Shown piece after piece: positions 1 to 25,614 of a stretch of DNA of 64,000 bases. This DNA is from a virus (Duplodnaviria; Caudoviricetes), in IMG/VR virus record IMGVR_UViG_3300021087_001082, positions 1 to 64,000 of that record; one strand, given 5' to 3'. Below the pieces are notes generated by a model that saw only the letters and a list, made by a program, of their open reading frames with translations, searched no databases and was not told where the DNA came from. The position numbers were made by a program, and so were the translations under genes. Each line of letters starts with the position of its first letter. The first letter of the stretch is position 1.

Positions 1-456
1 AGCGAACATATACATTTCAATATAAAGGCAAACGACCAAAAGGACACGTAAAGTTTGTCGAACGTCTAACAGCAGCAATATGAAATATTTTTTAATTATA
101 ACCTTGATGATAGCTATGAGTATTCCCGTCACATGTATAACATTGATGACTGATAGCTATGAGATACCGTTTGTAGGTGAGGCAATTGTATTGCTGCAAG
201 GAAAATAAATAACAATTATTGGGAGTGGGTGTAAGCTGGAATAAGCTCAGAGCTAGTGATAAACCTACTTCCTTTAACTAAATAGAGAGAGAAATTATGA
301 GTATGATAGTTTGTAAGTATGGATGTCTGAGTGATACAGACGAAGAACCGGATTTTGGATTCGAAGAAATTAAATGTTCGGACGGAACCACAATTCATGA
401 ATATACATGTGAATCTCATATGGAACCAAGAGAATATCCGGAACCAGAATTAGAAT

Positions 457-729
457 ATGACACCCATTGAGATTTTTGAATATAAGCAGAGATGGAAGCC
501 AAATGGTTTCAGTGTTGCATTTCATTCTGATTGGGACATCCACGTTAAGGCCTGGTTGAAGCAATTAGATAAGACCGAATGGATTTGGGATAACTGGACA
601 GGAGTATATGAACATACATGTTACTTTGAAGACCTGACAGTTGCTCAAGCTTTTACAAAATTCTTAGATGAAGGACACCCACGTGCCAGAATTAAAAAGG
701 CCGTGTTTGATGGACTTCCTGATAAATAG
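457..729 (+). CDS. hypothetical protein
   Basis: 90 aa ORF in the dominant + orientation; no recognisable motif. Confidence 0.6.
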   Translation: MTPIEIFEYKQRWKPNGFSVAFHSDWDIHVKAWLKQLDKTEWIWDNWTGVYEHTCYFEDLTVAQAFTKFLDEGHPRARIKKAVFDGLPDK

Positions 730-991
730 AAAGACCTAAGCATTCTGAGTTAGTGGTAGATCGTGGTCAGAGGTACGGCGGAGGTTCGTTGACCGAAGCT
801 GTAGGGTAACTTCCCCTTCAATGACTCTGAGGTAAGAATGTTATGTGTGAATGTTGTGGATATAAGCAGTCATCAATTTGGTGACAGTAACCACATACAC
901 TGGAGCGGCGATGACGATTCGTGAGAAGTTCGCAGGCCAAAGGTTCCAGGTATCGACGTACAAGGACGGACACATGGTCTTTCTTTTTTTT
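728..991 (+). ncRNA. putative structured ncRNA, unknown class (~257 nt)
   Basis: ORF-free GC-richer gap; AGAAAGACC (728-736) pairs with GGTCTTTCT (976-984), followed by a T run; internal helices such as TCAGAG/CTCTGA and GTCATCA-ATT-TGGTGAC. Confidence 0.6.
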
Positions 992-1011
992 AACCCTAAT
1001 CGGTATATATT

Positions 1012-1299
1012 ATGAGTAAAAATAAAAATAAAAAAAGAATAAGAGATGATGAAACAGTTACATCATGGGGTGCTCTAAGAGAATCAATTAGAGAAGAGGT
1101 CTTAGAAGAGTTCGTTGAAAAAGAACAAAATTATTTGCAGCGTATTGAATATCTAGTAGGTGCAAATAACGAAGCTATGGATTTGTTAAAAGTATGTGAA
1201 GATAAGTGTTCTTGCATGCATGAAGAATTAGATGCCTATCGATATCCAATGTTGCCAGGCCTTGAACAAGGAAAAGAGATAATATACGATCCGTTCTAA
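1012..1299 (+). CDS. hypothetical protein
   Basis: 95 aa ORF ending just before tRNA-Asn. Confidence 0.6.
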   Translation: MSKNKNKKRIRDDETVTSWGALRESIREEVLEEFVEKEQNYLQRIEYLVGANNEAMDLLKVCEDKCSCMHEELDAYRYPMLPGLEQGKEIIYDPF

Positions 1300-1305
1300 T
1301 TACAT

Positions 1306-1380
1306 TCCTCGGTAGCTCAGTGGTAGAGCAGATGACTGTTAATCATCGGGTCGCAGGTTCGAATCCCGCTCGGGGAGCCA
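1306..1380 (+). tRNA. tRNA-Asn(GTT), canonical
   Basis: TCCTCGG acceptor, GATGA-CT-GTT-AA-TCATC anticodon arm, GTTCGAATCC T arm, G73 and encoded CCA. Confidence 0.97.
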
Positions 1381-1528
1381 GCTTATGAAAGAAATAAAAC
1401 CATGACATTAGAAGAAGTAGAAACACGTTTAAAAGAGTTAATTGATATACCTATAATATTATATCAGGAGTGCTTAGAAGAAGGGTTCACAGAGGAAGAG
1501 GCTATTAAGGAAACGTTTATAAGGTTTT

Positions 1529-1735
1529 ATGAATGAAAAATGGATAAAGTATGGAGGGTGGATGCTCTCGTTGTTGACAATACTGATTGGTGTATCTTTC
1601 ATCTGGCCACATTTTCATGTAGCATTATTGGGATTTGCATTAATTTATTTGGGAGTTCGGATTTTTAATTTTTCTACCTTTGAAGAATATAAAGAAAAAC
1701 GAATATTGTTGATGCTAAAGCTAAGAAAATGGTGA
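1529..1735 (+). CDS. small membrane protein
   Basis: two hydrophobic segments in 68 aa. Confidence 0.6.
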   Translation: MNEKWIKYGGWMLSLLTILIGVSFIWPHFHVALLGFALIYLGVRIFNFSTFEEYKEKRILLMLKLRKW

Positions 1736-1736
1736 T

Positions 1737-2009
1737 ATGCCAGTAATGCGATATGATAGTGGATTCGCTGATTTGAAGCATACTAATATGTGCTATCGTT
1801 GTGATTGGTGTGATCAAGGATATAACAGGATCATCTACCTGGCGCAAGTAGGATTAGATTACTTCATGTGCGATCGATGTAGAGAATATTATAAGGTATC
1901 TTATAGTGATGCCAAAAGGTTACAATTCGTAACTAGTAAAAGAGAATGGATATCAGCAGTAGGATTATGGGTACCAGATCCCTTCTGGCGGAAGGATGAT
2001 GATGACTGA
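1737..2009 (+). CDS. hypothetical Cys-containing (possible Zn-ribbon) protein
   Basis: CDWC...CDRC motifs. Confidence 0.55.
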   Translation: MPVMRYDSGFADLKHTNMCYRCDWCDQGYNRIIYLAQVGLDYFMCDRCREYYKVSYSDAKRLQFVTSKREWISAVGLWVPDPFWRKDDDD

Positions 2010-2316
2010 GATCTGGATAGCATTGGTACTTACATGGATGCCAGTAGAGAGAGTAATAGATAAGGAATTCAACACAGAGAAAGAATGCTGGGATTATTAT
2101 GAAACAATAATATCAGAAGGCACAACATATGCTGAAGGTAAATGGGGAAAACAAAATCTAGATCATCAAGGAAGAAGACCAGATATGAATTTTCATTTCA
2201 AAACAAATTGGAATTATCCTATAAGGACTTATAAAGGTTTAGGAGAATCACCAAGGGGTAAAGATCAAGTATGGTTGAGTTGTGAACCAAAATATCCAAA
2301 TATCTATAACAAGTAA
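1996..2316 (+). CDS. hypothetical protein
   Basis: 106 aa ORF overlapping the upstream stop; hydrophobic N-terminus. Confidence 0.55.
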   Translation: MMMTEIWIALVLTWMPVERVIDKEFNTEKECWDYYETIISEGTTYAEGKWGKQNLDHQGRRPDMNFHFKTNWNYPIRTYKGLGESPRGKDQVWLSCEPKYPNIYNK

Positions 2317-2330
2317 TAAACATCAAAATT

Positions 2331-2532
2331 GATTTGTTGGGTAAACGACAGCTTGTAGGTCACTCGGAGGTAGACCGGCAAGGCTTGTACAAGTGCTCTA
2401 CTCTGGAGAAATTTAAGGTGTTATGTGGGAAGGCCAACGGTATGCGCCAACGGACGATACATAACTTAGGGAATGATGTGTCACTCGGTGATACCCTCTC
2501 ATTCGCACATCCAGAGCTCTACCCAACAAATC
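2331..2532 (+). ncRNA. putative structured ncRNA, unknown class (~202 nt)
   Basis: perfect 13-bp terminal helix GATTTGTTGGGTA/TACCCAACAAATC; nested CTCTGGA/TCCAGAG, GTTATGT/ACATAAC and GAATGA/TCATTC helices; ends 10 nt before tRNA-Asp. Confidence 0.65.
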
Positions 2533-2542
2533 TTTTATTATT

Positions 2543-2619
2543 GGTCCCATCGTCTAGGCGGCCTAGGACACCGGCCTGTCACGCCGGCAACATGGGTTCG
2601 AATCCCATTGGGACCGCCA
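2543..2619 (+). tRNA. tRNA-Asp(GTC)
   Basis: GGTCCCA/TGGGACC acceptor, CCGGC-CT-GTC-AC-GCCGG arm, GCCA end. Confidence 0.97.
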
Positions 2620-2632
2620 CAAAGGAATGTGA

Positions 2633-3576
2633 ATGACAGGGATTACACCAGCAGAATTTCTCGCAATACTTCCAAAAAAAAGTAAAGAGGATCATAAAAA
2701 GGATATTGAAGCAATGAAACAAATGTGGGGAACAAGTAAAAATATAAATCTTAATCCTAAAGTAGATTTAGAAGAAGCCGCAAAAGCAGTCAAAGTTATA
2801 GAAGACAATTTAAAAAAGAAACGAATTGAGGAAACATGACTGATAAAATTAAACCACAATCTCCCTGCAAACGTTGGAAGAAAAAAAAATTAGGAAAAAA
2901 TGAATATTGGAGCCCTAATATGAATATAGAATCAAAAGATAAAACATCTTTCGGAGAGTACTTTGACAATCAACGTGATAGAATAGTCAAGGCCATGCAA
3001 GATAAGAATAAGCAATTGAATGTTGAATGGATGGAAAGATATGAAAAGAGAAAGAAAATAGCTAAGGAGATGTTAGATGCACAAGTATAACTTTGAGAAT
3101 GCTACAGAGAAGAGAGAAGCAGATAAAATAATGGGACATATATTAATGCCTCATCCGGATGGTCAGGTAAAGCATCCAGAACATTTACAACAACATGAAA
3201 TGCTTCAAGTATTACAACGAGAAGCTATAAGTGCTAATTGGGAGGTTGTTAAAAAAACGATTTCTGAATTACCAGAACATCAAAAAAAAGATACAATAGA
3301 AATGTTAAAACGTTCAATGGACGTATCGCGGCACACCTGGCCCGATGATATAGTATGAAAGAAGTTCAAATTTTCATTGATAAAAAAGAAATGCCGTATT
3401 CACATCCAAATATGGTAGTAGCAATTAATTCATGGTTGCCATACTTAACAAATACAGATTTGGATGAATTAATAAAAAGAATCTGTGCTATGAAAGATCA
3501 TCGAGAAGAAAAACAAAAACAAGTAGAAGAAGAATGCAAAAACATTCCGATACAAACAAATAGACACGATACTTAA
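2633..3576 (+). CDS. four tandem small hypothetical proteins (2633-2839, 2836-3090, 3077-3358, 3355-3576)
   Basis: ATGA-type overlapping start/stop coupling typical of phage operons. Confidence 0.6.
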
Positions 3577-3577
3577 T

Positions 3578-3653
3578 AGGTGTTTAGCTCAGATGGGAGA
3601 GCAGGTGTTTAACAGGCATCAGGTCGCTGGTTCGATCCCAGCAACACCTACCA
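3578..3653 (+). tRNA. tRNA-Val with AAC anticodon (A34)
   Basis: AGGTGTT/AACACCT acceptor, Val-type D arm AGCTCAGATGGGAGAGC, anticodon arm GGTGT-TT-AAC-AG-GCATC, A73 and CCA. Confidence 0.9.
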
Positions 3654-3664
3654 TTAGGAAAAAA

Positions 3665-3874
3665 ATGAAAAGGCTATTATTAATTTTTACAATGATGGCA
3701 ACATGGATAGTTGTTAGTTGCAGCAGTACAGCAGGATGTTTTGGGCATTGGGTTAAAGGGCCAGGCCCTCAAAGAGGGACTAGAGATCTTAATCGAGACG
3801 CTAAATTACCTTATTACCAATGTGTAGATGAGAATAACAAAGGTAGTAATTTAGAAAGACGGAGTTCCCCGTGA
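3665..3874 (+). CDS. small putative lipoprotein
   Basis: MKRLLLIFTMMATWIVVSC signal peptide ending in a lipobox-like Cys; likely start lies after the tRNA. Confidence 0.55.
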   Translation: MKRLLLIFTMMATWIVVSCSSTAGCFGHWVKGPGPQRGTRDLNRDAKLPYYQCVDENNKGSNLERRSSP

Positions 3875-3878
3875 CCAA

Positions 3879-3952
3879 GCGAGTATCGTATAAAGGCAAT
3901 ACCTGAGATTTCCAATCTCATGATGAGGGTTCGATTCCTTCTACTCGCTCCA
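3879..3952 (+). tRNA. tRNA-Gly(TCC)
   Basis: GCGAGTA/TACTCGC acceptor, TGAGA-TT-TCC-AA-TCTCA arm, U73 and CCA. Confidence 0.96.
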
Positions 3953-4070
3953 TAAATAAATATATGGAAGAGCCACATCACGTATTAGTCGCGAGAAGCA
4001 GAGCCCGGAAAGACAAAGATTATTGGATCGAAACTACTTTAGAATATAAAACTCCAGACGGAGATCGTGG

Positions 4071-4289
4071 ATGGATAGTCAAAGTGCACAACGGACCAAA
4101 ACCGAAGACGTATCGGAAGAGATAGATCTATGCGTTCTTTGTAAAGAACCTACCAATTATAAAATTTCAGATCATATAGATAAAAGAAGAGACTACATAG
4201 AAGGCATGGGCCAAGTATGTAGTAGGTGTAGTTATACTCATCGGCAATATAAAAGCAATGAAGTGACAGACATGTTATATGATATATGA
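4071..4289 (+). CDS. small Zn-ribbon-like protein
   Basis: CVLC...YIEGMGQVCSRC. Confidence 0.6.
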   Translation: MDSQSAQRTKTEDVSEEIDLCVLCKEPTNYKISDHIDKRRDYIEGMGQVCSRCSYTHRQYKSNEVTDMLYDI

Positions 4290-5623
4290 ATCCTAAAGAC
4301 CATCCAACATATTGCCATTACCCTTTTAAGGCTATGACGTTTAAAAAGTGGTCTACAGATGGTAGACGACCAACAAATGTAACGCCTTGCTGTATGATGA
4401 TGAATCCTGTGGAACAAAAGGGAGAGGCTGCAGATATGCATTACAACATGGGTCTTTCCGAAAAGGCGTTAGCAGGAATGAATCCCCTTGAAATATTTAA
4501 TTCTCCTCAATACGAAAAGTTAAGAAACGATTTAACGAATGGTATAAAGAATGAAGCATGTTCTGTCTGCTGGAGGATGGAAGAAAAAGGTTTAGAATCG
4601 TTTAGACAATGTTCTGATTTATATGGAGGCACTGAAGGTCTATTTGAATTTGACATTACACTCTCTAACCTTTGTAACCTAGCTTGTAGAATGTGCAATG
4701 TTGGAAGTTCTCATCAGATAGGTAAAGATGTGGACGCTATGGTTAAGAATGGTACTCACGATGAATTTATGAGCGTAAGTGATAGAGCAATGCCAATAGA
4801 GAAAGGTGTTATCTATGATAAAGAGTCTAACGAAGTAATTGATTGGTTAATGAATAATACTCATCAGATAAAAATGTTAAAAGCATCTGGTGGAGAACCT
4901 TTTTATGATAGACGAGTTGTAAAGGTATTAGAAAAGTATGTTGAAGATGGCACTGCTAAAAATACAACTTTAAAGTTCCATACTAATGCTACTCAATTTA
5001 CACCTGAGTTAGCAAATCTATTAAACAACTTTAAAGAACAGGGCCACACATTTAGTATAGATGGCACACAAAGAACATATAATTATATTAGACACAATTC
5101 TAATTGGGGTGATTTAAATAATAGTTTAGATTGTTATTTAAGTAGGTGTAAAAATGTTAAACATCAATATTTTAATATGGTGTTATCTGGTATTAATGTT
5201 TTAAATGCTGCTGACTATATTGAATGGATTTGTATCAAATGTAAATCATTTGAAGTTCCTGATTGGTATATACATTTTGCTGAAATGTTTCCGGGTAATA
5301 GGGGAACATCAATTAAAAATATTCCCATAGAACTTTTAGAAGAATCATTAGATAGACTTATAGAAGTAATAGATTCCGGTATATCAACTGTCGCTGATTC
5401 AGATACTGTACATGCAACTATAAGAGGAAAAGAATATAAGTCATGGTATAGATTTAATATTCATAATTTAGTTGGACAAATACAAAACGCAATTAATAAT
5501 CATAACGGGGATTATAAGAAGTTTCAAAGAGAATTAGTTATTTTAGATAATGTTAGAAATCAATCCTATAAGGATTATATAGACCCTTTATTAGTAAAAC
5601 ATCTGGATAATATAAATGTATAA
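4286..5623 (+). CDS. radical SAM protein with N-terminal SPASM/twitch-like Cys domain
   Basis: CNLACRMC (CxxxCxxC), SGGEPF, HTNAT; N-terminal CHYPF...PCC...CSVC. Confidence 0.9.
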   Translation: MNPKDHPTYCHYPFKAMTFKKWSTDGRRPTNVTPCCMMMNPVEQKGEAADMHYNMGLSEKALAGMNPLEIFNSPQYEKLRNDLTNGIKNEACSVCWRMEEKGLESFRQCSDLYGGTEGLFEFDITLSNLCNLACRMCNVGSSHQIGKDVDAMVKNGTHDEFMSVSDRAMPIEKGVIYDKESNEVIDWLMNNTHQIKMLKASGGEPFYDRRVVKVLEKYVEDGTAKNTTLKFHTNATQFTPELANLLNNFKEQGHTFSIDGTQRTYNYIRHNSNWGDLNNSLDCYLSRCKNVKHQYFNMVLSGINVLNAADYIEWICIKCKSFEVPDWYIHFAEMFPGNRGTSIKNIPIELLEESLDRLIEVIDSGISTVADSDTVHATIRGKEYKSWYRFNIHNLVGQIQNAINNHNGDYKKFQRELVILDNVRNQSYKDYIDPLLVKHLDNINV

Positions 5624-5930
5624 ACCACTGCCCCACTATATAACAATTAAAAAATCTCCTATTAGTGGACTTGGACTTTTTGCAACAGAGAAAATTGAAG
5701 CCAATTCATTAATTGGGATTACACATCATCCTCGAAAAGAAAGTGAAGATGGATACATTCGCACACCTCTAGGTGGATTCGGAAATCATTCTGATGACCC
5801 CAATTGTAGTAAAATATTAATGGAAGATGGCTCGTGGTGGATTTGTGCTTCAAAAGATATTGAGTCGGGAGAAGAACTTACTTGGACATATACTTTATAT
5901 AAAATTACTTTTAATGAAGTTTTTAGTTGA
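5616..5930 (+). CDS. SET-domain protein (putative lysine methyltransferase)
   Basis: SPISGLGLFA, NHSDDPNC and IESGEELTWTY are SET signature motifs. Confidence 0.88.
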   Translation: MYKPLPHYITIKKSPISGLGLFATEKIEANSLIGITHHPRKESEDGYIRTPLGGFGNHSDDPNCSKILMEDGSWWICASKDIESGEELTWTYTLYKITFNEVFS

Positions 5931-5955
5931 CATTTTTGAAAAAATGCTGTATAAT
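5927..5955 (+). promoter_or_regulatory. sigma70-type early promoter
   Basis: TTGACA-N17-TATAAT. Confidence 0.85.
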
Positions 5956-5987
5956 AATAAATGTTGTACCACAAGGGATAATAATAA

Positions 5988-6659
5988 ATGGAAATACCAG
6001 ATTATAGTTACCTAGAAAATTTGAGAATTAAAGCGAACAGAAGTCAATTAGATAATACTATGTCAATGAAAGATGTAGAAAGATTAAGGAAAGCCCAACC
6101 ACCACTGAGAGTTAGATTAGGAAGTACTGATAGAACTATGTCAATCAAAGAAGACATTGATATAGAAAAGATAAACAAAGAAGTAGAAGAAACAGTTAAT
6201 AAGTTAAACCCAGAATGGAAGAAATCAGGAAATTGTCAAATATTATTACAAGGGTGTTTTGAAGGAAAGAATGATCCTTATTTTGGGTCGAGAAGAGTTA
6301 AAGAATTAGAAGATAGTGGTCACGAAGAAAAAGATTTTATTGTTCCTATATTTGATATGCCATATACTAATAAGTTAATAAAACAACTAAAGATGTATAG
6401 GACTCGATTAATGTTATTAAAACCTAAATCGTGTCTATCATGGCATTATGATCTAGGAATGAGAATACATATTCCCTTATATGGGGATAGTGACAGTTTT
6501 CATATTATAGAAGACAATGAAGGTAATAAAATTGTACACCAAATAAGACCAACAGGAGGAGCTCATTTAATGAACACAGAAGTTTATCACTCTGGAATTA
6601 ATCTATCTATGGATGTGGATAGATGTCATATAGTAGGATGTGTTAATGTAGACGAATAA
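5988..6659 (+). CDS. 2OG-Fe(II) oxygenase, aspartyl/asparaginyl beta-hydroxylase-like
   Basis: RTRLMLLKPKSCLSWHYD...RIHIPL...HSGIN...RCHIV (HxD...H...R). Confidence 0.8.
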   Translation: MEIPDYSYLENLRIKANRSQLDNTMSMKDVERLRKAQPPLRVRLGSTDRTMSIKEDIDIEKINKEVEETVNKLNPEWKKSGNCQILLQGCFEGKNDPYFGSRRVKELEDSGHEEKDFIVPIFDMPYTNKLIKQLKMYRTRLMLLKPKSCLSWHYDLGMRIHIPLYGDSDSFHIIEDNEGNKIVHQIRPTGGAHLMNTEVYHSGINLSMDVDRCHIVGCVNVDE

Positions 6660-6668
6660 AGGAGATCT

Positions 6669-6863
6669 ATGTATACTCGAAGAATAGTTATTGATAAAGT
6701 TAACAAACATATTAATGCTATGTACCCATACACAGGTGAATATATTATTGATCAGATGACACTACAAGGAGAAATGTCTCAGAACCTAGATAATGTTTTA
6801 GATAAAGCATATAAAATGTATAGAAAATTAATTAATGGAAATAAACAAGTATTGGACAAATAA
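6669..6863 (+). CDS. hypothetical protein
   Basis: preceded by AGGGAG SD. Confidence 0.55.
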   Translation: MYTRRIVIDKVNKHINAMYPYTGEYIIDQMTLQGEMSQNLDNVLDKAYKMYRKLINGNKQVLDK

Positions 6864-7539
6864 AGGATATGGCTCTGGGTTTGGGGATTTAATAAATCAG
6901 ATATCATATGATTATATAAGTGCTAGTGAACCTACAATAATTAATTGGCATTTACAACCTCGAACCCATAGACAAGTAAAACGAATATTAAACTTTTTTA
7001 AACCTAATGATTTAATTACACATGAGTTTAAAACATTTACTCAAACAGATGAACCGCCATTGAGTCAACATCCACATGATTATTGGCTAGCAAAAGAAAT
7101 TCATCAAGGCGGGGATTATGTAGCCATATGGTTATATACACAACATAAATCAAAATCCCCTCATCATCAAGAAAAGGTAGTGGATATTACTTCTTTGGAA
7201 ATGATGATAAGAAGTCTTAAAGCAAATGGGCATAAGATAGTTATTGTTCCAAGCTTGGGACCTAACAGGACGATCTATAATATCGAATATAATTTTGATC
7301 GATATGGTTATATGTTAACTAGTGTATTAAAGAATTGTAAATTTTTAATTTGTTCAGAAGGTGGCATTGCTCATTTAGCTAGAATGATGAGAGTTCCCTC
7401 TTTAGTTTATTTTAATCAAAAAGCGCCATGGAAGGGCCAACCTGGACCCGATTTAAGGGAATTTTGGATTACTGAATATAGTAGACCGATAGATACGTTA
7501 ACTAGAGCAGCTGCCGAAGGTGCAAAGCTAAATGTTTAA
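6835..7539 (+). CDS. putative glycosyltransferase (GT-B, GT9-like)
   Basis: N-terminal GFGD and C-terminal ICSEGGIAHLARMMRVPSLVYF resemble the GT9 DSG..HLA..LG.P motif. Confidence 0.6.
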   Translation: MEINKYWTNKGYGSGFGDLINQISYDYISASEPTIINWHLQPRTHRQVKRILNFFKPNDLITHEFKTFTQTDEPPLSQHPHDYWLAKEIHQGGDYVAIWLYTQHKSKSPHHQEKVVDITSLEMMIRSLKANGHKIVIVPSLGPNRTIYNIEYNFDRYGYMLTSVLKNCKFLICSEGGIAHLARMMRVPSLVYFNQKAPWKGQPGPDLREFWITEYSRPIDTLTRAAAEGAKLNV

Positions 7540-8086
7540 AGTAATACCTGGATTTGTGGATGAGGACTATTGTAAAGTATTTACAGTATATGCTCTCAAT
7601 GAACGATTAGAGCGATTTAAGCCCTACAGCAAAAAGAAACATGAAACACCTGGGCCTGATACTCACGGCAGATATAAAGACCATTTTGCTGAAGCATCGT
7701 TAAAAGCTTTTTTACCAAGAGTGCAACGATACTTTGGAGATAAAGAAATTTATCCTTCTTATTCATATTACATTGTGTATGAAAATGGTGCACGTTTAAA
7801 TAAACATATTGACAAGGAAGTTTGTGAAATATCTCTTACTATACCTACAGGTTACCTTTATAGTGATAGCTATCAAGGGTCTGTATGGCCTCTATATATC
7901 GATGACGATGTTCCAATAAAGCTAAATATTGGAGATGCTTTTTTATACACGCAAGACCCCAAGAAGCACGTACATTGGCGATTACCTTTTGAAGGAATAT
8001 ATCAAGTTCAATTATTACTTCATTATGTAACGGGATCTAATACAAAGTCCCCCATCCCCGTTCAAAGATTAATGCAAGATGCTTAG
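7532..8086 (+). CDS. 2OG-Fe(II) oxygenase
   Basis: LNKHIDKEVCEISLT...GDAFLY...HWR...QLLLHY. Confidence 0.8.
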   Translation: MFKVIPGFVDEDYCKVFTVYALNERLERFKPYSKKKHETPGPDTHGRYKDHFAEASLKAFLPRVQRYFGDKEIYPSYSYYIVYENGARLNKHIDKEVCEISLTIPTGYLYSDSYQGSVWPLYIDDDVPIKLNIGDAFLYTQDPKKHVHWRLPFEGIYQVQLLLHYVTGSNTKSPIPVQRLMQDA

Positions 8087-8195
8087 GAACCTAATGATCC
8101 GTAATATAATTATTATTTGCTTTTGTTTAGCCTTTGTTGCATTTTATACCCATATTGTCATGACAGGGATGTAGCTCAGACCCCCCTACCAAAAA

Positions 8196-10145
8196 ATGTT
8201 GCCAAAGAAAAAAGATAATTTAGAAAATCCGTTAGGTTATCCACTAGAAGAACATTTGCCTGAAATTAAATCCATAATAGGAAAATATAATAATACTTTA
8301 TATACACCTAATGGTATAACTAGTGATTGGTCAAATTATAAATTACATTTACAACAAACTAAACCTAATTTAAAACCTAGAGTTTTATTTCTTAGTCATG
8401 ATATAAGTGAAATAGAAAATATTACTTTAATGGCATTGGGTGGTATAGTTCGTGACATGAATGGTGAACGATATTATTTGTTAGTTAATGAAAGTAATAT
8501 ACACAAAACATATGAAGTAATAGAACAATTTAAACCCGATTGGATAGGAATTAGTTTATATACCGGTGTCAGTAATTATTTTTTTGATTGGGTTAAACAA
8601 TATAAATTTTCAAATAAAAAAACAATACCTATAATAATTGGCGGTCATTATAATAATTATAATTTTAAAGAAGCAAAAGAATTTGGTGGAGATTATGTTG
8701 TAAGAGGAAAGGGAATTAATATTTTTAGAGATATATTATTAGGATTATATCGACCAGGAATATATCACGATCCTATGCCTTATGCTAATATTCCTCGTAT
8801 GGATAGAGAAAAATTTTATGAAGACACTTTTAATTTTTCAGACAAAACTAAAATATATGCATTGAGTGAAGTTAAATCTGTTCTTACTGCTCTTGGTTGT
8901 GCATATTCTTGCACATATTGTTATATAAGTTCTTTAATAGAAAATTTAAAAGAAGCATATGATGGATCAAATATTTTACCTCCTAGTATAATACAAGATA
9001 GACCAATAGAAACTCTAATCGAAGAAGGTAAAGATATATTAAGATTAGATGAAAAATATAATATTAAAACAACAGCGATATTTGATCAAGCAGATATTTC
9101 TCTTAATAATATTAAATGGTGGAAAGAGTTAAGTGTTAGATGGAAAGAAATTAATATACCATTTTATATACAAGCTAGACCAGGAATGTTGGCGGGTAAA
9201 GGTGGTAAAGATAGAATAAATATTATTTCAAAAAATAACATAGTAGCAGGTATATCTATGGCAATAGAATCGGGTGATCCTAATATTAGAAAATTATTAT
9301 TAGACAGACACGAATCTAATGAAACTATCATAGATGCTATTAACAATGTTAAACAATTTAATATAGAATTAAGAACACAAGCAATAGTCGGATTACCAAC
9401 AGTTAAACCAAAACAATATGTAAAGCCATCTAAGGACTTGCCGTTAAAAGAATATTATTATGAAGACCCTATACAAGAGTCTTTAAAATGTTTAGATCTA
9501 ATTTCTAAATCTAATTTTAGAAAAGAAGATTATTATTGGAATGCACTCTATTCCCCATTTCCGGGAACCCCTTTAGGAGATTATTCTGTTGCTGCTGGAT
9601 TTGCTAATGATAATACAAACTCCAATATATATCAATTTACACAAGATAGTGGATTAAATTGTTTCACAGGAAATATACTAAAAAGACAAATTGCATTTAG
9701 CCAAACATCAAATTTTTTCTCGCATTTAAAAAATGCAAAGGACATGATGACATTATTTCTTTATGGGAATAACGATTTTGATTTGAATGTATATGCAGAT
9801 TTTATTAATAAGAATCGGAAATTATTTAAATTTAAACAACAATCAAATAATAAAGAAATATTTCCTGATGTAAATAAACATGAGTTAAAACTATTTTTTG
9901 ATTATGCATATAAAAACAATAAACCTTTTAAAAAAATAAATCTTAAATTAATACCATATTATCTAAATTTATATGATGGTATTATTTTGGCTGCAAAAGT
10001 AGCAGTTGACTTTTTTAATAAAGAACATTATAATTTAAAAGAATTTTATAGAACAGAACGATTGCATTATTATGATTACAACTATAATAAACATTATATT
10101 CCCAAAGAATATAAAGAATTTCTAACAAATTTATTATCTTATTGA
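8196..10145 (+). CDS. B12-binding-domain radical SAM protein
   Basis: KPDWIGISLYT and IIIGGHY cobalamin-binding fold, GCAYSCTYC, AIESGD, PFPGTPL; noticeably more AT-rich than its neighbours. Confidence 0.85.
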   Translation: MLPKKKDNLENPLGYPLEEHLPEIKSIIGKYNNTLYTPNGITSDWSNYKLHLQQTKPNLKPRVLFLSHDISEIENITLMALGGIVRDMNGERYYLLVNESNIHKTYEVIEQFKPDWIGISLYTGVSNYFFDWVKQYKFSNKKTIPIIIGGHYNNYNFKEAKEFGGDYVVRGKGINIFRDILLGLYRPGIYHDPMPYANIPRMDREKFYEDTFNFSDKTKIYALSEVKSVLTALGCAYSCTYCYISSLIENLKEAYDGSNILPPSIIQDRPIETLIEEGKDILRLDEKYNIKTTAIFDQADISLNNIKWWKELSVRWKEINIPFYIQARPGMLAGKGGKDRINIISKNNIVAGISMAIESGDPNIRKLLLDRHESNETIIDAINNVKQFNIELRTQAIVGLPTVKPKQYVKPSKDLPLKEYYYEDPIQESLKCLDLISKSNFRKEDYYWNALYSPFPGTPLGDYSVAAGFANDNTNSNIYQFTQDSGLNCFTGNILKRQIAFSQTSNFFSHLKNAKDMMTLFLYGNNDFDLNVYADFINKNRKLFKFKQQSNNKEIFPDVNKHELKLFFDYAYKNNKPFKKINLKLIPYYLNLYDGIILAAKVAVDFFNKEHYNLKEFYRTERLHYYDYNYNKHYIPKEYKEFLTNLLSY

Positions 10146-10273
10146 AATCATTATAGATATTTGTTTATCAATGATATCAACACCCTCTAATTATCCTATT
10201 GAAATCATTGATAATCTTTTATCAGCAATGATATCAACGGTTTCTAATTATCCTATTGAAATCATTGATAATC
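10137..10273. repeat. ~2.5 copies of a 57-bp tandem unit upstream of an early promoter
   Basis: TATTGAAATCATT at 10140, 10197 and 10254; CAATGATATCAAC at 10169 and 10226. Confidence 0.9.
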
Positions 10274-10280
10274 ATTTCTG

Positions 10281-10309
10281 TTGCTTTTTTGGTCTAGATG
10301 TGATATAAT
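10281..10309 (+). promoter_or_regulatory. sigma70-type early promoter
   Basis: TTGCTT-N17-TATAAT with extended TG; near-identical to the promoter at 27551. Confidence 0.85.
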
Positions 10310-10344
10310 ATATACAGAGATAAAAAAACTAGCCGGAGAGAGAT

Positions 10345-11890
10345 ATGATAGAGCCAGAAGTAAGTACGATCGCAAAAGAGATGGTTGAGGGGTTCCATAA
10401 TTATGAACCACTTGTTGGCGCAACGTTAAAATCATACGTTGAGACTACAAGTTCTATTGGCCTTGTCACTGCAGATAACAGTAATTTGTTATTTGGCGGT
10501 TTCAGCTTATTCTGTTCTACACTTCCTGGTACTCAGTTCATATGTGTACCAATGGCAGTAGGTTTTGTCTACGAATGGTTCGATCAGACGATCGCACACA
10601 TGTTTTAACATACCGGTGATCAACCACCGAAGCGAAGAGTTGGGAGGGTGGCGGTTAACTTTAATTTATTATGAGAGAGATTATGCTATTACAAGAGATA
10701 TTAAGATTCATAGGAACGACCATCGTCTTTGGTGGTCTGATGTATTTAACAACAATTCTTTTCTTTGTATTATAGAGGCTGTATGGAAGATAATAATTTT
10801 TTAGTTGGTGATAAAGTAGTCATTGGAACTTCTATAAGAGAAGAAGCCGGTGAAATTAAACATCAATTTTTTACAATGACAGGACCAGCTTACGTGGTTG
10901 AATATGATGATGGAACTGCAGAAACTGCAGACCATGATGATATAATTTTAGCACCAGAAGATTTTGTTGCACCTGTTGTGGGATTTAAATATGCAACTAT
11001 TGAAATCTTGAGAGAGAAAGAAACGATTTTCGATTCACCAACATCTGGAAAATATTTTGTTCGAGAGTGGACAGTGACAGATGGAGAAAGAGAAGAGCGA
11101 TCAGGAACGTTTTTTAAAACAATGAATGAGGCTGAAAATTATGTCAATGAATATCAAAGTTAATATGAAAAATGATAATCCGTTTAAACCTAATACTAGT
11201 AGAGTTGATAGATTAGAAACTCAGATATTAATTCTTATGGAGAGAGTCGCTACATTAGAAAGGGACTTAACATATCATATAAAAGAGTCTGAAAGATGTT
11301 AACATACTTATGGAGTCAAGGAATGGTAGATACAATAGCAAAAAAAGTTGCTGAAGAACCTACTGATTTTCAAATTGCAGAACAAATATTGGATAATGTA
11401 CCTCAACATGTGATTGATGAGGAACGTGGAGATATGATTAGAATGTTGAGAAAGGAACAAGCTCAACGTGAAATGTATGATGATCCTTATATGAATTGGT
11501 CAGGTCATAGATGATAATAACAACTACAGCTATAATGGCGGTTCAAGCTATTATTGTTACATGGATAATGGTTACCGCACCCGAAGAATGTCCTATGAAG
11601 TATAGGAAGACAATTGAAGAAGGTGGTGTACTAGAACATCAAGGACAGCTGAATGATTATTGTGTTACCGCATCCCTACCTTATGGAAGATATTACTGGG
11701 TTTTAAAAGAAGAAGAATAATGTTGAAATATATTATTTTAGGATTTTTATTAGGCTATGCATTTAGTTTTGTTAGCCAAGATTGGTACATGTTTTTTCAT
11801 CTTCACTTTATTAAAGCTTGTAGATGGGCAGAATTACCACACGAAGTTTGGGCATTCATGGATCAATATATATTTTTCGGGGCCTTATAA
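10345..11890 (+). CDS. cluster of small early hypothetical proteins (10345-10608, ~10783-11163, 11296-11514, 11511-11720, ~11720-11890)
   Basis: tandem + strand ORFs downstream of the early promoter; no recognisable domains. Confidence 0.55.
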
Positions 11891-11964
11891 CTCGCAGTGT
11901 CCGAGTGATTAGGAGATGGTCTGCAAAACCATTTACGTTGGTTCGATTCCAACCTGCGAGTCCA
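11891..11964 (+). tRNA. tRNA-Cys(GCA)
   Basis: CTCGCAG/CTGCGAG acceptor, ATGGT-CT-GCA-AA-ACCAT arm, U73 and CCA. Confidence 0.94.
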
Positions 11965-11972
11965 CTTTTACC

Positions 11973-12001
11973 TTGACATTTTATTTTTAATGTAGTATAA
12001 T
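11973..12001 (+). promoter_or_regulatory. sigma70-type early promoter
   Basis: TTGACA-N17-TATAAT. Confidence 0.85.
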
Positions 12002-12168
12002 ATAACTTTATAATAATTAACAGAAAGGAATAAGCATGGAAGCTATGACACATTGTTCTGAAATAATATCTACTCTCACAACTACACATCTTATTGGGGG
12101 TATAATGTTCTTCGCTATGGCATTTTGTTTAGGAGCACTTTTTGAAAAGATACAGCAGGAGAAAGCGA

Positions 12169-12378
12169 ATGCAGTCAGGTAAGCGAGTCCGACAAGAGAA
12201 TGCTTTAAAGCGTTTAGAGAAAACCGTGATCGCTCATACTGCGGGTCCGGAATTGGTAAATAAGATTTTGGGGGATAAAAAACTCTCCAAAACTTCCGAT
12301 GAGATAGAAAAAATTCGGAAGAAAAAACTGGTCCGCGCCCAGCTAACAATTGATAATACAAAAGCGCGATTAAGATAG
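12169..12378 (+). CDS. small basic hypothetical protein
   Basis: AGGAGA SD before ATG 12169 (MQSGKRVRQ...). Confidence 0.55.
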   Translation: MQSGKRVRQENALKRLEKTVIAHTAGPELVNKILGDKKLSKTSDEIEKIRKKKLVRAQLTIDNTKARLR

Positions 12379-12655
12379 GTATACCGAGGCGGTGGCTAGA
12401 AGGTCAGCCCTCCCTAAACTGGAGCAGGGGATCTTCGAAGGCTGGAGGTAATGTAGTACATCAACTACATTATTGCTCACTGGGTGATGGCCTCACCAAG
12501 CACCTTATCGATGTCTTTCCATATAAGGAAAGACTTAACGGTTTGGGAAATTTTCCTAACTACATCTTAACGCGTTGAGATGACAATTGGAAATGCTGGT
12601 GACCAGGTGTAGGTATACTAGGAGAAGGGGGTTCCTGATCAGGGCTCCCTTGTCC
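12378..12655 (+). ncRNA. putative multi-hairpin ncRNA, unknown class (~240 nt plus 3' hairpin)
   Basis: GGTATACC/GGTATACT closing helix (12378-85/12612-19) encloses hairpins TAATGTAGT/ACTACATTA, GTCTTTCC/GGAAAGAC and CATCTTAA/TTGAGATG; strong hairpin at 12621-12655. Confidence 0.65.
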
Positions 12656-12680
12656 GTTAACAATTAGAAAGGAATTATTA

Positions 12681-13046
12681 ATGCATTATTGCTTCGATAT
12701 TGATGGTACTATTTGTACTAACAGAGATACAGTAAGAAAAGAAAAAAATGATAATACGATTACTTATATGGATATGGAACCATGGCAGGATCGGATCGAT
12801 CATATAAACGCTCTATATGATAAAGGTCATCGTATTATAATGTGGACAGGAAGAGGTTGTAGAACTTATTCTGATAATCCAGAATTTTGGAAACCACAGA
12901 CTGCAGAACAATTAAAAAAATGGGGTGTTAAGTACCATGAATTAATTGTAGGTAAACCTTTTTTTGATGTATACATTTGTGACAAATCTCAAAACTCTGA
13001 AGCATGGTTTTCTATTAGTGAGGCATTAGACGGCGATGCCCTTTGA
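12681..13046 (+). CDS. HAD-superfamily phosphatase (capsule-biosynthesis phosphatase-like)
   Basis: FDIDGT motif I, WTGR motif II, GKP..DVYICDK. Confidence 0.85.
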   Translation: MHYCFDIDGTICTNRDTVRKEKNDNTITYMDMEPWQDRIDHINALYDKGHRIIMWTGRGCRTYSDNPEFWKPQTAEQLKKWGVKYHELIVGKPFFDVYICDKSQNSEAWFSISEALDGDAL

Positions 13047-13326
13047 AGTTAAAACGAAGCAATATGAAACCCATATACAAGGTAAGGAATTTAAACCGAT
13101 GAAAGCTATATTAGAATTTGAATTGCCTGAAGACTATGAGAACTATCTTCAATCACAATACGGTATGAATTGGTCTTTAGCTATGTGGGATTTAGAACAG
13201 TATTGCAGAAATGAGATTAAACACCGAGAAGAATATTATTCAGAGGGGGAACAGGAAGTTTTACAAACAGTCCGTGATAAGATAGTAGAGATCATGAACG
13301 AATATAATTTAAAATACCCAACATAA
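13036..13326 (+). CDS. hypothetical protein
   Basis: 96 aa ORF ending at tRNA-Tyr. Confidence 0.6.
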   Translation: MPFEVKTKQYETHIQGKEFKPMKAILEFELPEDYENYLQSQYGMNWSLAMWDLEQYCRNEIKHREEYYSEGEQEVLQTVRDKIVEIMNEYNLKYPT

Positions 13327-13411
13327 GGGGAGGCTGTGCAATGGTGAGCTCAACAGACTGTAAATCTGCCGTCTTTCGACTGTGATGGTTCGACTCCATC
13401 CCTCCCCACCA
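13327..13411 (+). tRNA. tRNA-Tyr(GTA)
   Basis: GGGGAGG/CCTCCCC acceptor, CT-GTA-AA loop, type II variable arm, ACCA; position 8 is C rather than the usual U. Confidence 0.92.
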
Positions 13412-13421
13412 AAGGAATATT

Positions 13422-13739
13422 ATGAGTATAACAGAAGGTGCTTTATATGATAGATTTGATCTAGAAGAATCTATAGTACAGTTAGGACAAATTTCAGATG
13501 ATGTAAAATTACTATCTGAGAATGTTATGGAGAATCTTGATATTAATACTGATACAATTGTTAATGCATTAACGGGATTAGAGACAATACATAATATGCG
13601 TTTTGATAAATGCATTGAAGTATTAGAATATGTTATTGGTACAAAGATATTAGATAATAAAAATTATAATCATCCTAATTTAGTAAAAAAGGTCCCAAAA
13701 GACGAATGGGATGAGACAGGAAGTTTTCAGGACTTCTAA
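13422..13739 (+). CDS. hypothetical protein
   Basis: 105 aa ORF with AAGGA SD. Confidence 0.65.
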   Translation: MSITEGALYDRFDLEESIVQLGQISDDVKLLSENVMENLDINTDTIVNALTGLETIHNMRFDKCIEVLEYVIGTKILDNKNYNHPNLVKKVPKDEWDETGSFQDF

Positions 13740-13744
13740 AATTA

Positions 13745-13752
13745 TATAAATA
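13745..13752 (+). promoter_or_regulatory. T4-type late promoter
   Basis: TATAAATA upstream of an acidic head-core-like gene. Confidence 0.75.
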
Positions 13753-13792
13753 AAGTAAATAAGAAACTGACAATAAATTACGGAGTGTATCA

Positions 13793-14503
13793 ATGTCGGA
13801 TAAGGAAATACAAGAAGAAGTAAATAATGACGATGCAACTGAGGTTATGGAGACTCCTTCGAATCCTGCGTCAGAACTGGTGGATTTAGTCCTATCCGGT
13901 GAGCTACACGCAGCCAATGAGAAGTTCCATGGAATCGTTGAATCTAAAGTGGTTACAGCAATTGAAGATGAAAAATTAAAAATCGCTCAAACTCTTTTTG
14001 CAGAAGAAGATGAAGAGCCCCTTGAAGAAGCACCTAAAGCAAAAGTAAAAGAAGATGATGATGATAGTGATGACGACGAGGACGACGATGAGGAAGAAGA
14101 TAGCGGCGAAGATAAGCCAGCTCCGCCATCGGATAAGGAAGATGACGATGATGATTCAGATTCAGATGATGACGATGATTCTGGAGATAAGGCTAAACCG
14201 AAGAAGGGTAAAATACCCCCTCAATTCATGAAAAAAGAAGACGTAGAACCCGTTGATCAAAATGAAGGGATCACTGGTGATGATGATGCGAATCAAAGAG
14301 CGTTAGATAAAAACCGCGCTATGGCAAAGAAGTATGGCCAAGTTCGACAGGGTATTCCTCCTGAAAAAAAGAAAGAAGAAAAGAAAGAGGAAGTATCACC
14401 TGAACAATCTTTTGATCCAGGCGAAGAGAGTTCAAATGCTCCTATCCCTGAAGGTTCTTTCGTAGCACAAGTAGCAGATTACTTAGCTGGAAACCGTAAA
14501 TAA
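13793..14503 (+). CDS. highly acidic protein, prohead core (gp67-like) N-terminal domain
   Basis: LVDLVLSGELHAANEKFHGIVESKVVTAIEDEKLKIAQTLF resembles the T4-like gp67 core; D/E tracts; late promoter. Confidence 0.55.
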   Translation: MSDKEIQEEVNNDDATEVMETPSNPASELVDLVLSGELHAANEKFHGIVESKVVTAIEDEKLKIAQTLFAEEDEEPLEEAPKAKVKEDDDDSDDDEDDDEEEDSGEDKPAPPSDKEDDDDDSDSDDDDDSGDKAKPKKGKIPPQFMKKEDVEPVDQNEGITGDDDANQRALDKNRAMAKKYGQVRQGIPPEKKKEEKKEEVSPEQSFDPGEESSNAPIPEGSFVAQVADYLAGNRK

Positions 14504-25521: not shown

Positions 25522-25614
25522 TGGCTCTGGGGGTTGGATTCGAACCAACACGCCCCTCTGCAAAAGGGACAATACGTAAACAACGCATCACGTCTACCGT
25601 TTCGTCACCCCAGA
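25522..25614 (-). tRNA. non-canonical type II tRNA, anticodon GTT, 93 nt
   Basis: TCTGGGG TG ACG AAACGGTAGA CGT G ATGCG TT GTT TA CGTAT [22-nt variable arm TGTCCCTTTTGCAGAGGGGCGT] GTTGG TTCGAAT CCAAC CCCCAGA G CCA. Confidence 0.88.

Follow-up and report, generated by a model that had tools for sequence, protein, structure and literature searches.

A compact, structured non-coding RNA of ~260 nt and its previously unclassified family in uncultured marine T4-like phages

The 64,000-nt stretch of DNA analysed here (positions 1 to 64,000 of the IMG/VR virus record IMGVR_UViG_3300021087_001082; hereafter the window) carries at 728-992 (+) the gene for a compactly folded non-coding RNA of ~260 nt, a member of a previously unclassified family of uncultured marine T4-like phages. 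That this is a real family of structured RNAs we regard as practically certain, and the RNA probably acts in trans rather than as a cis-regulator. Our findings favour a model where it represents a new class of trans-acting phage RNA, probably self-associating, to which we give a probability of roughly 0.55. Four rival explanations are each less well supported than this model: that the RNA is a cis-acting aptamer, that it serves as a decoy or scaffold for a protein, that it is a ribozyme, or that the element acts at the DNA level. A sequence-only reading had proposed here a closed multi-domain RNA, possibly a new class of phage non-coding RNA; the proposal is supported, a match to an Rfam family, missing covariation and a conserved short open reading frame (ORF) each having been tested for and none having occurred.

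The gene falls in the 282-nt gap (window 730-1011) between the + strand ORFs 457-729 and 1012-1299, a gap with a GC content of 0.45, compared with 0.346 in the window overall. The source record, a 76.8-kb IMG/VR virus contig estimated to be 44% complete, encodes a family-B DNA polymerase, radical-SAM genes and a large protein ~30% identical to the "peptidase" genes of cyanomyophages, and on these grounds we assign the source phage to the marine T4-like myophages. The window copy of the RNA occurs in runs from 13 marine metagenome studies. The lead to more distant relatives came from four public runs compared with the window, in which the loose ends of contigs carried variants of the RNA in other contexts; words common to the window and these variants served as exact search patterns. 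In IMG/VR, the first pattern scan yielded 8 loci, a 20-nt core word 65, and a pattern from the 5' domain 38, of which 7 were new; a scan of the JGI metagenomes gave at least 118 stretches, and 80 loci among the matches listed were then searched. A 20-mer search of a genome collection returned three contigs, with the RNA in one only, a 1.7-kb contig binned in a metagenome-assembled genome (MAG) of Gammaproteobacteria. Matches in two bacterial MAG contigs (L103 1849-1868 and L104 5191-5210) were rejected as chance 20-mer matches, since they appear protein-coding when translated by eye, a warning for pattern-based searches in general.

A covariance model built from the resulting alignment (R1, 266 positions) finds a single copy in the window, at 728-992 (+), spanning model positions 1-266 with 264.1 bits and an E value of 1.5e-65. 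In the IMG/VR and genome set it makes 75 matches, spread over 74 sources, and in the metagenome set 81 matches over 80 sources (among the loci listed), the two sets together holding 137 distinct family sequences with abundant covariation. Similarity starts at a CCUAAG word (window 735) and stops after a CAUGG word and the 3' side of the closing helix P1. From one group of loci to another the flanking sequences show no relationship, so that conservation is bounded by the predicted RNA.

Folded as a single sequence, the window copy reaches a minimum free energy of -78.9 kcal/mol (z -1.65), 15 of 200 shuffles being at least as stable, which is not significant (z -0.48 for the minus strand). The evidence for the fold lies in the comparison of relatives. 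With 50 distinct sequences, RNAalifold returned 51 pairs, 34 of them with compensatory changes; helix P2, missed because a few rows were misaligned, was added by hand. In the final structure of 57 pairs and 11 helices, 96.8% of the cells of these 50 sequences are paired, a value reached by none of 500 shuffles (86.6 +/- 0.3%), and pairing falls to 33.7-44.2% when the 3' partners are slid by 1-3 columns. Changes on both sides affect 37 of the 57 pairs (18.5 +/- 1.8 in shuffles), and all helix classes but one show compensatory changes among the 50 relatives. The metagenome set behaves alike: 98.1% paired versus 87.2% when shuffled, with double changes in 38/57 pairs.

The helices described by the sequence-only reading are all in the sequence where it had placed them: the terminal 9-bp helix and the T run behind it, GCATTCT/AGAATGT (P2), TCAGAG/CTCTGA (767-772/825-830) and TACGGC/GCTGTA (774-779/798-803) in the first domain, and TGTGG/CCACA (855-859/891-895) and CTGGAG/TTCCAG (900-905/944-949) in the second. 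Two were to be qualified. The pairing ATGTGT/ACACAT is present, but covariation supports a register shifted by two (845-848/972-975), both registers being possible because of a GU repeat in the window; GTCATCA/TGGTGAC (869-875/879-885) is likewise present, but lies inside the variable hairpin 856-894, beyond the reach of covariation.

No pseudoknot was seen in the covariation scan, nor did it show a partner for the joining strand J2/3. Six further candidates were dropped, no covariation for them being visible by eye in the alignments: an alternative helix of J2/3 in competition with P3, a kissing interaction of the P4a loop with the P5 loop, a pairing of the P4a loop with a UCGAAG word, a K-turn at the foot of P9, a P4-like pseudoknot as in RNase P, and a P3/P7 topology as in group I. 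Columns 109 and 135 of alignment A2 covary (17 U-A, 17 C-G, 10 U-G); a tertiary contact or common ancestry may account for this. CCUAAG and (C/U)AUGG, the junction words, may bear a likeness to the 11-nt tetraloop receptor; in the covarying pairs of P2 and P6 their bases are used in a different way.

The 2821 pair cells of the alignment include 2392 Watson-Crick, 338 G-U and 17 A-C combinations. The excess of G-U over A-C identifies the + strand as the RNA, as the sequence-only reading had argued from the many G-U pairs of the window copy; read as the opposite strand, pairing drops from 96.8% to 85.4%. The same asymmetry bears on the idea that the conserved stretch is a DNA-level element (a recombination or homing site, an origin, a mobile cassette) or a small protein gene, which we find hardly credible. 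Many genomic contexts, and two copies on some contigs (L061, L134), speak for it, but the wobble asymmetry fits a single-stranded + transcript, and the termini covary as a helix instead of being conserved as sequence. As to a protein gene, none of the 60 distinct full-length members has a stop-free frame on the + strand, the longest ORF in six frames has a median of 41 aa, and the lengths of the members are spread evenly modulo 3 (21/20/19).

Searches of known families point to a novel RNA. At gathering thresholds the whole window gave 6 tRNAs only in Rfam 15 (4227 families). The region 600-1100 (501 nt), searched at E<=10, gave 3 noise matches, the best of which, lying on the minus strand, scored 19.3 bits where the gathering score is 55; the region 1-14000, at E<=5, gave the 6 tRNAs and one weak match elsewhere, with nothing at the RNA; and the loci of 13 relatives, at E<=10, gave nothing over the RNA. 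ARAGORN called 7 genes in the window, none at 728-992, and in relatives placed tmRNA genes beside the RNA, never within it. The sequence-only reading had noted that hallmarks of tmRNA, RNase P and signal recognition particle RNA are lacking, and these searches bear it out. As far as Rfam 15 curates them, they also covered 6S RNA, group I and II introns, riboswitches, GOLLD, ROOL, OLE and raiA. Blastn against the 50,697 phage records of INPHARED found no relative, even at E<=1 with two different members, and a literature search by topic and by the core words as sequence found no description of such an RNA. A screen of IMG/VR, the data source that also supplied relatives here, reported 10,006 unnamed candidate structured RNAs (csRNAs) with covariation (PMC10690425); its main text names no such RNA, and the candidate set may include the family. 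Novelty is claimed with respect to Rfam 15, INPHARED and the literature searched.

Close relatives of the phage do not share the RNA. In IMG/VR, 27 loci hold relatives of the upstream ORF. It could be called in 24 of them, and in 22 of these the next ORF follows within 27 nt; blastn and nhmmer with the RNA found nothing in the 27 loci. A gap of this kind being absent there, the RNA-bearing gap appears to be an insertion peculiar to the source lineage. Relatives of the downstream ORF were not found in IMG/VR; 8 loci of close phage relatives, reached through the radical-SAM gene, are without the RNA, and the covariance model has no match in 35 related-phage loci reached through the two neighbouring genes (L002-L036). 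In contigs L032 and L034, a sequence like window 1-79 joins one like window 3077-3310 almost directly, which marks the 3-kb block between them (window 80-3076, with the RNA, a second RNA element and two tRNA genes) as an insertion or deletion between relatives.

The case for self-association comes from a tetranucleotide in a junction strand of the 3' domain (window 958-961). In the 134 distinct sequences with this region (125 identified by regular expression and 9 by eye among 12 missed rows, the other 3 rows being without the region), it reads GUAC in 107, GGCC in 18 and GGCU in 9, mixed forms being absent. It is therefore self-complementary in 134/134, GGCU requiring two G-U pairs. The adjacent middle positions 959 and 960 are UA or GC, never mixed, with a mutual information of 0.76; the next value is 0.26 (with the neighbouring 961), followed by values of at most 0.23. 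Nowhere else in the alignment does a stretch of 4 or 6 nt show this behaviour. On a maximum-likelihood tree of 60 full-length members, with the columns of the tetranucleotide excluded, at least 7 changes of state are required, at least 3 of them forced by starred branches. Kretsch and colleagues take covariation between immediate neighbours, which cannot arise within one molecule, as the sign of symmetric pairing between chains, and describe such contacts, seen by cryo-electron microscopy, in OLE L9.3 and GOLLD L21a (bioRxiv 10.1101/2024.12.08.627333). Because adjacent covarying nucleotides cannot pair within one chain, two copies of the RNA may pair through 958-961. The mark of an ornate homo-oligomer, adjacent-nucleotide covariation in a palindrome, is found here, in this case from sequences alone, and we rate self-association through the palindrome as possible, at slightly less than even odds.

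A different reading of the same conservation is that the RNA is a scaffold for a phage protein, or a mimic titrating a host ribosomal protein, nuclease or defence sensor, with a dimeric protein reading the palindrome. Its accessory distribution in hypervariable regions is typical of host-takeover and counter-defence genes, the invariant single-stranded words are long, and a basic 197-aa protein is the commonest neighbour, found within 3 kb in 28/66 loci. This protein is nonetheless no constant neighbour: it is absent from the 76.8-kb source record, itself only 44% complete, and it has no Pfam or PHROG family and no known RNA-binding domain; next to it come a glycosyltransferase and an RNase-H-like exonuclease. 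Base pairing is, moreover, the simpler explanation for a change of UA to GC by which Watson-Crick self-complementarity is retained. We thus hold a protein partner or decoy to be rather unlikely.

A small number of known systems come closest to the RNA. The raiA motif RNA is a compact, highly conserved bacterial non-coding RNA of ~200 nt; it differs in being bacterial, not phage-borne, and the RNA studied here has no Rfam match. T4 encodes the stable RNAs C and D (species 1 and 2), small, with paired ends and beside tRNA genes; no INPHARED record (T4 and its relatives assumed to be among them) matches the family. OLE, a bacterial RNA, occurs in extremophilic Firmicutes and has partners among proteins. 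It shows no homology to the family, and the palindrome studied here sits in a junction strand, not in a hairpin loop. ROOL RNAs are several hundred nt long. Together with GOLLD they were recently found to form RNA-only cages, and both resemble our RNA in being phage-encoded, often near tRNA genes, with multi-helix folds, conserved loops and no consistent neighbour, although cmscan of Rfam 15 detects no match in sequence or structure. Many GOLLD members exceed 800 nt (bioRxiv 10.1101/2024.12.08.627333), compared with the ~260 nt seen here. In the account given there, OLE, GOLLD and ROOL all use symmetric intermolecular pairings; ROOL and GOLLD are RNA-only homo-oligomers held partly by symmetric kissing contacts (bioRxiv 10.1101/2024.12.08.627333; published as PMC12286853), and OLE dimerises, one of its loops switching between palindromic tetranucleotides (bioRxiv 10.1101/2024.12.08.627333), the same kind of adjacent-nucleotide covariation as in our family. 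What sets the present RNA apart is its hosts, marine T4-like myophages, and an oligomerisation suggested by one covarying palindrome, while that of ROOL and GOLLD was observed.

Whether the RNA acts in cis or in trans is addressed by its neighbours. It lies tightly between ORFs of the same strand, the upstream ORF ending within ~10 nt of the model start in the larger clusters and the commonest downstream ORFs beginning ~10-40 nt past the model end. A cis-acting riboswitch or leader, that is, a ligand-sensing aptamer in which P1 and the U tract terminate transcription or gate the ORF 10-40 nt downstream, would sit in just this position. The RNA is always on the coding strand just upstream of an ORF (median distance 21 nt in the largest downstream cluster), the P1 3' strand enters a U tract in 64/113 relatives, the conserved joining strands and three-way junctions resemble ligand pockets, and related marine myophages have been described to use riboswitches (PMC9004378). 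The identity of the downstream genes, on the other hand, disfavours a cis-regulator: 71 downstream ORFs fall into 30 unrelated clusters (61 upstream ORFs into 23), and no consistent position upstream of functionally related genes was found. The largest cluster, the 15 members of which encode the 197-aa protein, lies upstream of the RNA in L051; in 6 sources a tmRNA gene follows the RNA; the U tract is missing in 49/113 relatives; and no alternative pairing with the downstream region was seen, by eye only. A riboswitch is, in our view, distinctly unlikely.

The stable RNA genes nearby raise the further alternative of a ribozyme, or of an element that processes stable-RNA operons, for example by releasing a tRNA or tmRNA from a precursor. 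Phage RNAs such as GOLLD and ROOL tend to lie among tRNA genes, and the sequence-only reading had drawn this parallel. It holds for the window, in which a tRNA-Asn gene lies 314 nt downstream of the RNA, followed within 13 kb by five further tRNA genes called by both ARAGORN and Rfam. For the family it is borne out in part: of the 154 source contigs, most of them short, 17 have a tRNA or tmRNA gene no more than 1.5 kb away, in every case on the strand of the RNA. In six sources (L054, L068, L074, L105, L168 and L172) a permuted two-piece tmRNA gene is found 20-85 nt downstream on the same strand; the RNA copies beside it form a divergent subgroup of the family. By Rfam, the tmRNA of L074 is of alphaproteobacterial type, and two-piece tmRNA of this type is reported as a feature of pelagimyophage and Melnitz-like marine phages (PMC9004378), which suggests hosts among streamlined marine heterotrophs. 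The proximity of these genes, together with a size, a GNRA tetraloop and strongly conserved junction nucleotides that are typical of catalytic RNAs, would suit a ribozyme, but no ribozyme family of Rfam 15 matches, no pseudoknot emerged from covariation, and 137/154 sources are without a tRNA or tmRNA gene within 1.5 kb (many contigs being short). This explanation is very unlikely.

Signals for transcription are variably present. The late-promoter-like sequence at the 5' end that the sequence-only reading had pointed out, GATAAATA, is loosely promoter-like only; in relatives, however, a TATAA[AT] box is common, found within 40 nt upstream in 24/50 distinct relatives versus 7.7% of background windows, and clusters 6-14 nt before the model start. 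A scan for sigma-70 promoters and hairpin terminators found nothing at the window's RNA. At the other end, a T run of at least 5 occurs within 20 nt after the CAUGG word in 64/113 distinct full-length relatives. As both signals are often absent, the RNA is as likely to be processed out of longer transcripts as to be transcribed on its own. Six listed run rows with the window copy are RNA libraries, and contigs from two of these cover the RNA; run X18 does not cover it. The summed depth excess over 751-955 in runs X15 and X14 mixes family members and is no measure of expression. Many genes downstream of the RNA have a TATAGA-like word ~10-15 nt before the start codon; in these phages it may serve as a promoter or as a signal for translation.

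Several points weigh against a self-associating, trans-acting RNA as the favoured explanation. The palindrome argument concerns one 4-nt site with three states; phage recombination could spread a state of the tetranucleotide without independent mutation, and a dinucleotide-reading, possibly dimeric protein could give the same pattern. The homologues were fetched by exact patterns derived from the window, which makes the invariance of P9 partly a matter of construction, because P9 served as search word for the sequences fetched through it. The alignments of the IMG/VR and genome matches and of the metagenome matches were both fitted to the model, and they are not fully independent, since contigs of IMG/VR and JGI overlap in origin, some coming from the same assemblies. 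For an autonomously transcribed RNA, the lack of a U tract in 49/113 relatives and of TATAA[AT] in 26/50 is unfavourable. The runs were available as assembled contigs only, blind to ends, strand and level and open to DNA carry-over. Two RNA-library contigs (X17 record 17, 749-1089; X15 record 12, 805-1107) cross the T run into the next ORF; they are read-through transcripts or DNA carry-over, and they disfavour tight termination in the window copy.

The architecture deduced from the alignments is given in table 1. P1, P2 and P6 abut, so the core is a three-way junction, from which a 5' domain (P2-P5), the conserved core, and a 3' domain (P6-P9), with a variable hairpin and a long arm tipped by GUGA, emerge. 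A second copy in one contig supports this division: L061 carries, beside a full copy, a 174-nt "mini" copy (9222-9395, minus strand, 61 bits) that keeps P1, the whole 5' domain, including the P3-P5 part (768-829), and P6, a short hairpin replacing P6a-P9, which marks the 5' domain and the junction as core and the 3' domain as peripheral. Contig L134 likewise has a second copy (1693-1748, +), cut by the contig end. The interior of P7 varies among relatives in length and sequence, and a run contig of the same lineage has 21 nt fewer within it. In 7 loci found by the 5'-domain pattern, P9 varies: L109 and L111 have A-U in place of the basal G-C, L105 has a rebuilt upper stem, and in L107, L108 and L110 the helix is shortened but retains GUGA.

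Table 1. Features of the RNA in window coordinates, with pairing and double changes (pairs changed on both sides) among relatives.
Feature	Position	Strand	Evidence or remark
Whole RNA	728-992	+	Covariance-model match
GATAAATA, loosely promoter-like A/T box	721-728	+	Overlaps stop codon of upstream ORF 457-729
P1, closing helix	728-736/976-984, 9 bp	+	Inner five pairs 96% paired, double changes 4/5
J1/2	737-739	+	
P2, closes 5' domain	740-746/835-841	+	94.6% paired, double changes 3/6 (A2); 99.5%, 4/6 (metagenome set)
J2/3	747-767	+	Variable length; conserved GAG and GGUGG words (A2)
P3	768-772/825-829	+	99.6% paired, double-changed pairs present
P4	776-779/798-801	+	82.5% paired, double-changed pairs present
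P4a hairpin	784-795	+	89% paired, double-changed pairs present
P5 hairpin	804-806/812-814	+	UAAC-type loop; 98.7% paired, double-changed pairs present
P6, closes 3' domain	845-848/972-975	+	98% paired; 848-972 double-changed in 24/50
P6a	853-855/965-967	+	100% paired, double changes 2/3
P7, variable hairpin	856-894, base 856-859/891-894	+	Base 97.9% paired, double changes 4/4
P8, long helix	896-909/936-952	+	98.4% paired, double changes 9/10
P9, on P8	912-934, GUGA tetraloop 921-924	+	GNRA-type
J8/6a, junction strand, 12 nt	953-964	+	Contains GUAC 958-961
T run after P1	984-991	+	Sequence

Other elements of the neighbourhood deserve mention. An element of ~60 nt at window 216-275 (+), 88-98% identical across loci and with a possible 10-bp stem around ~30 nt, lies ~450 nt upstream of the RNA, before ORF 297-470; it recurs in L041, L123, L143, L154, L165, L181, L131 and other loci, and in at least 7 other contigs, as well as in one run contig (X14), it directly follows the 3' end of the RNA. 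At window 2317-2545 (+), directly upstream of tRNA-Asp, a second GC-rich closed multi-helix element (fold z -2.36) includes a variable hairpin and has relatives 77-83% identical in L084, L087, L147 and L157, in which a TATAAT box precedes the closing helix; compensatory changes are seen in 4/67 predicted pairs, and in L084, L147 and L157 the element is found ~1 kb upstream of the family RNA. The third of the GC-rich gaps, at 12379-12680 (+) and with a GC content of 0.457, folds at -107 kcal/mol (z -4.0, 1/100 shuffles as good) with a closing helix and a terminal hairpin; it has no relative in the fetched loci, and L029, a 92%-identical phage contig, holds a different sequence there and is also without tRNA-Cys 11891-11964. 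By the covariance model, the elements at 2317-2545 and 12379-12680 are not relatives of the RNA. A 93-nt tRNA-Asn called by ARAGORN at 25522-25614 (-) goes unreported by the Rfam tRNA model at gathering score and is possibly a false call or an odd tRNA. Finally, ORF 3593-3874 (+), between tRNA-Val and tRNA-Gly, overlaps a tRNA at its start; from an internal Met it is small-lipoprotein-like, with a signal-like hydrophobic stretch ending in Cys.

Overall, we suggest that the RNA would work in trans as a stable RNA, encoded by a self-contained cassette between ORFs, and that it may self-associate into at least a symmetric dimer through the tetranucleotide of the 3'-domain junction. Since it keeps company with tRNA and tmRNA genes, our guess is that it might act on the translation or RNA-processing machinery of the host during infection. 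The most specific version of this model, in which the ~260-nt RNA, made by abundant marine myophages that infect streamlined heterotrophs, forms an RNA-only symmetric dimer or larger particle by way of the palindrome in the junction and acts on the host translation apparatus alongside the phage tRNAs and two-piece tmRNA, is offered tentatively and appears doubtful. Large, intricately folded RNAs of unexplained function are rare, and their study has repeatedly revealed new biochemistry. The present RNA is much shorter than GOLLD and ROOL yet carries the same sequence signature of self-pairing, and its ~260 nt can be synthesised, mutated and studied structurally as a matter of routine. The family is widespread, as judged from the 13 marine studies and the 118 or more metagenome stretches in which it was found, and its model provides an Rfam-style annotation for unexplained gaps in marine phage genomes. 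With an alphaproteobacterial-type tmRNA among the phages that carry it, the RNA bears on how viruses take over dominant bacteria of the ocean. If the proposed self-association is true, it would be among the shorter natural self-assembling RNAs, in one of the ocean's most abundant virus-host systems.

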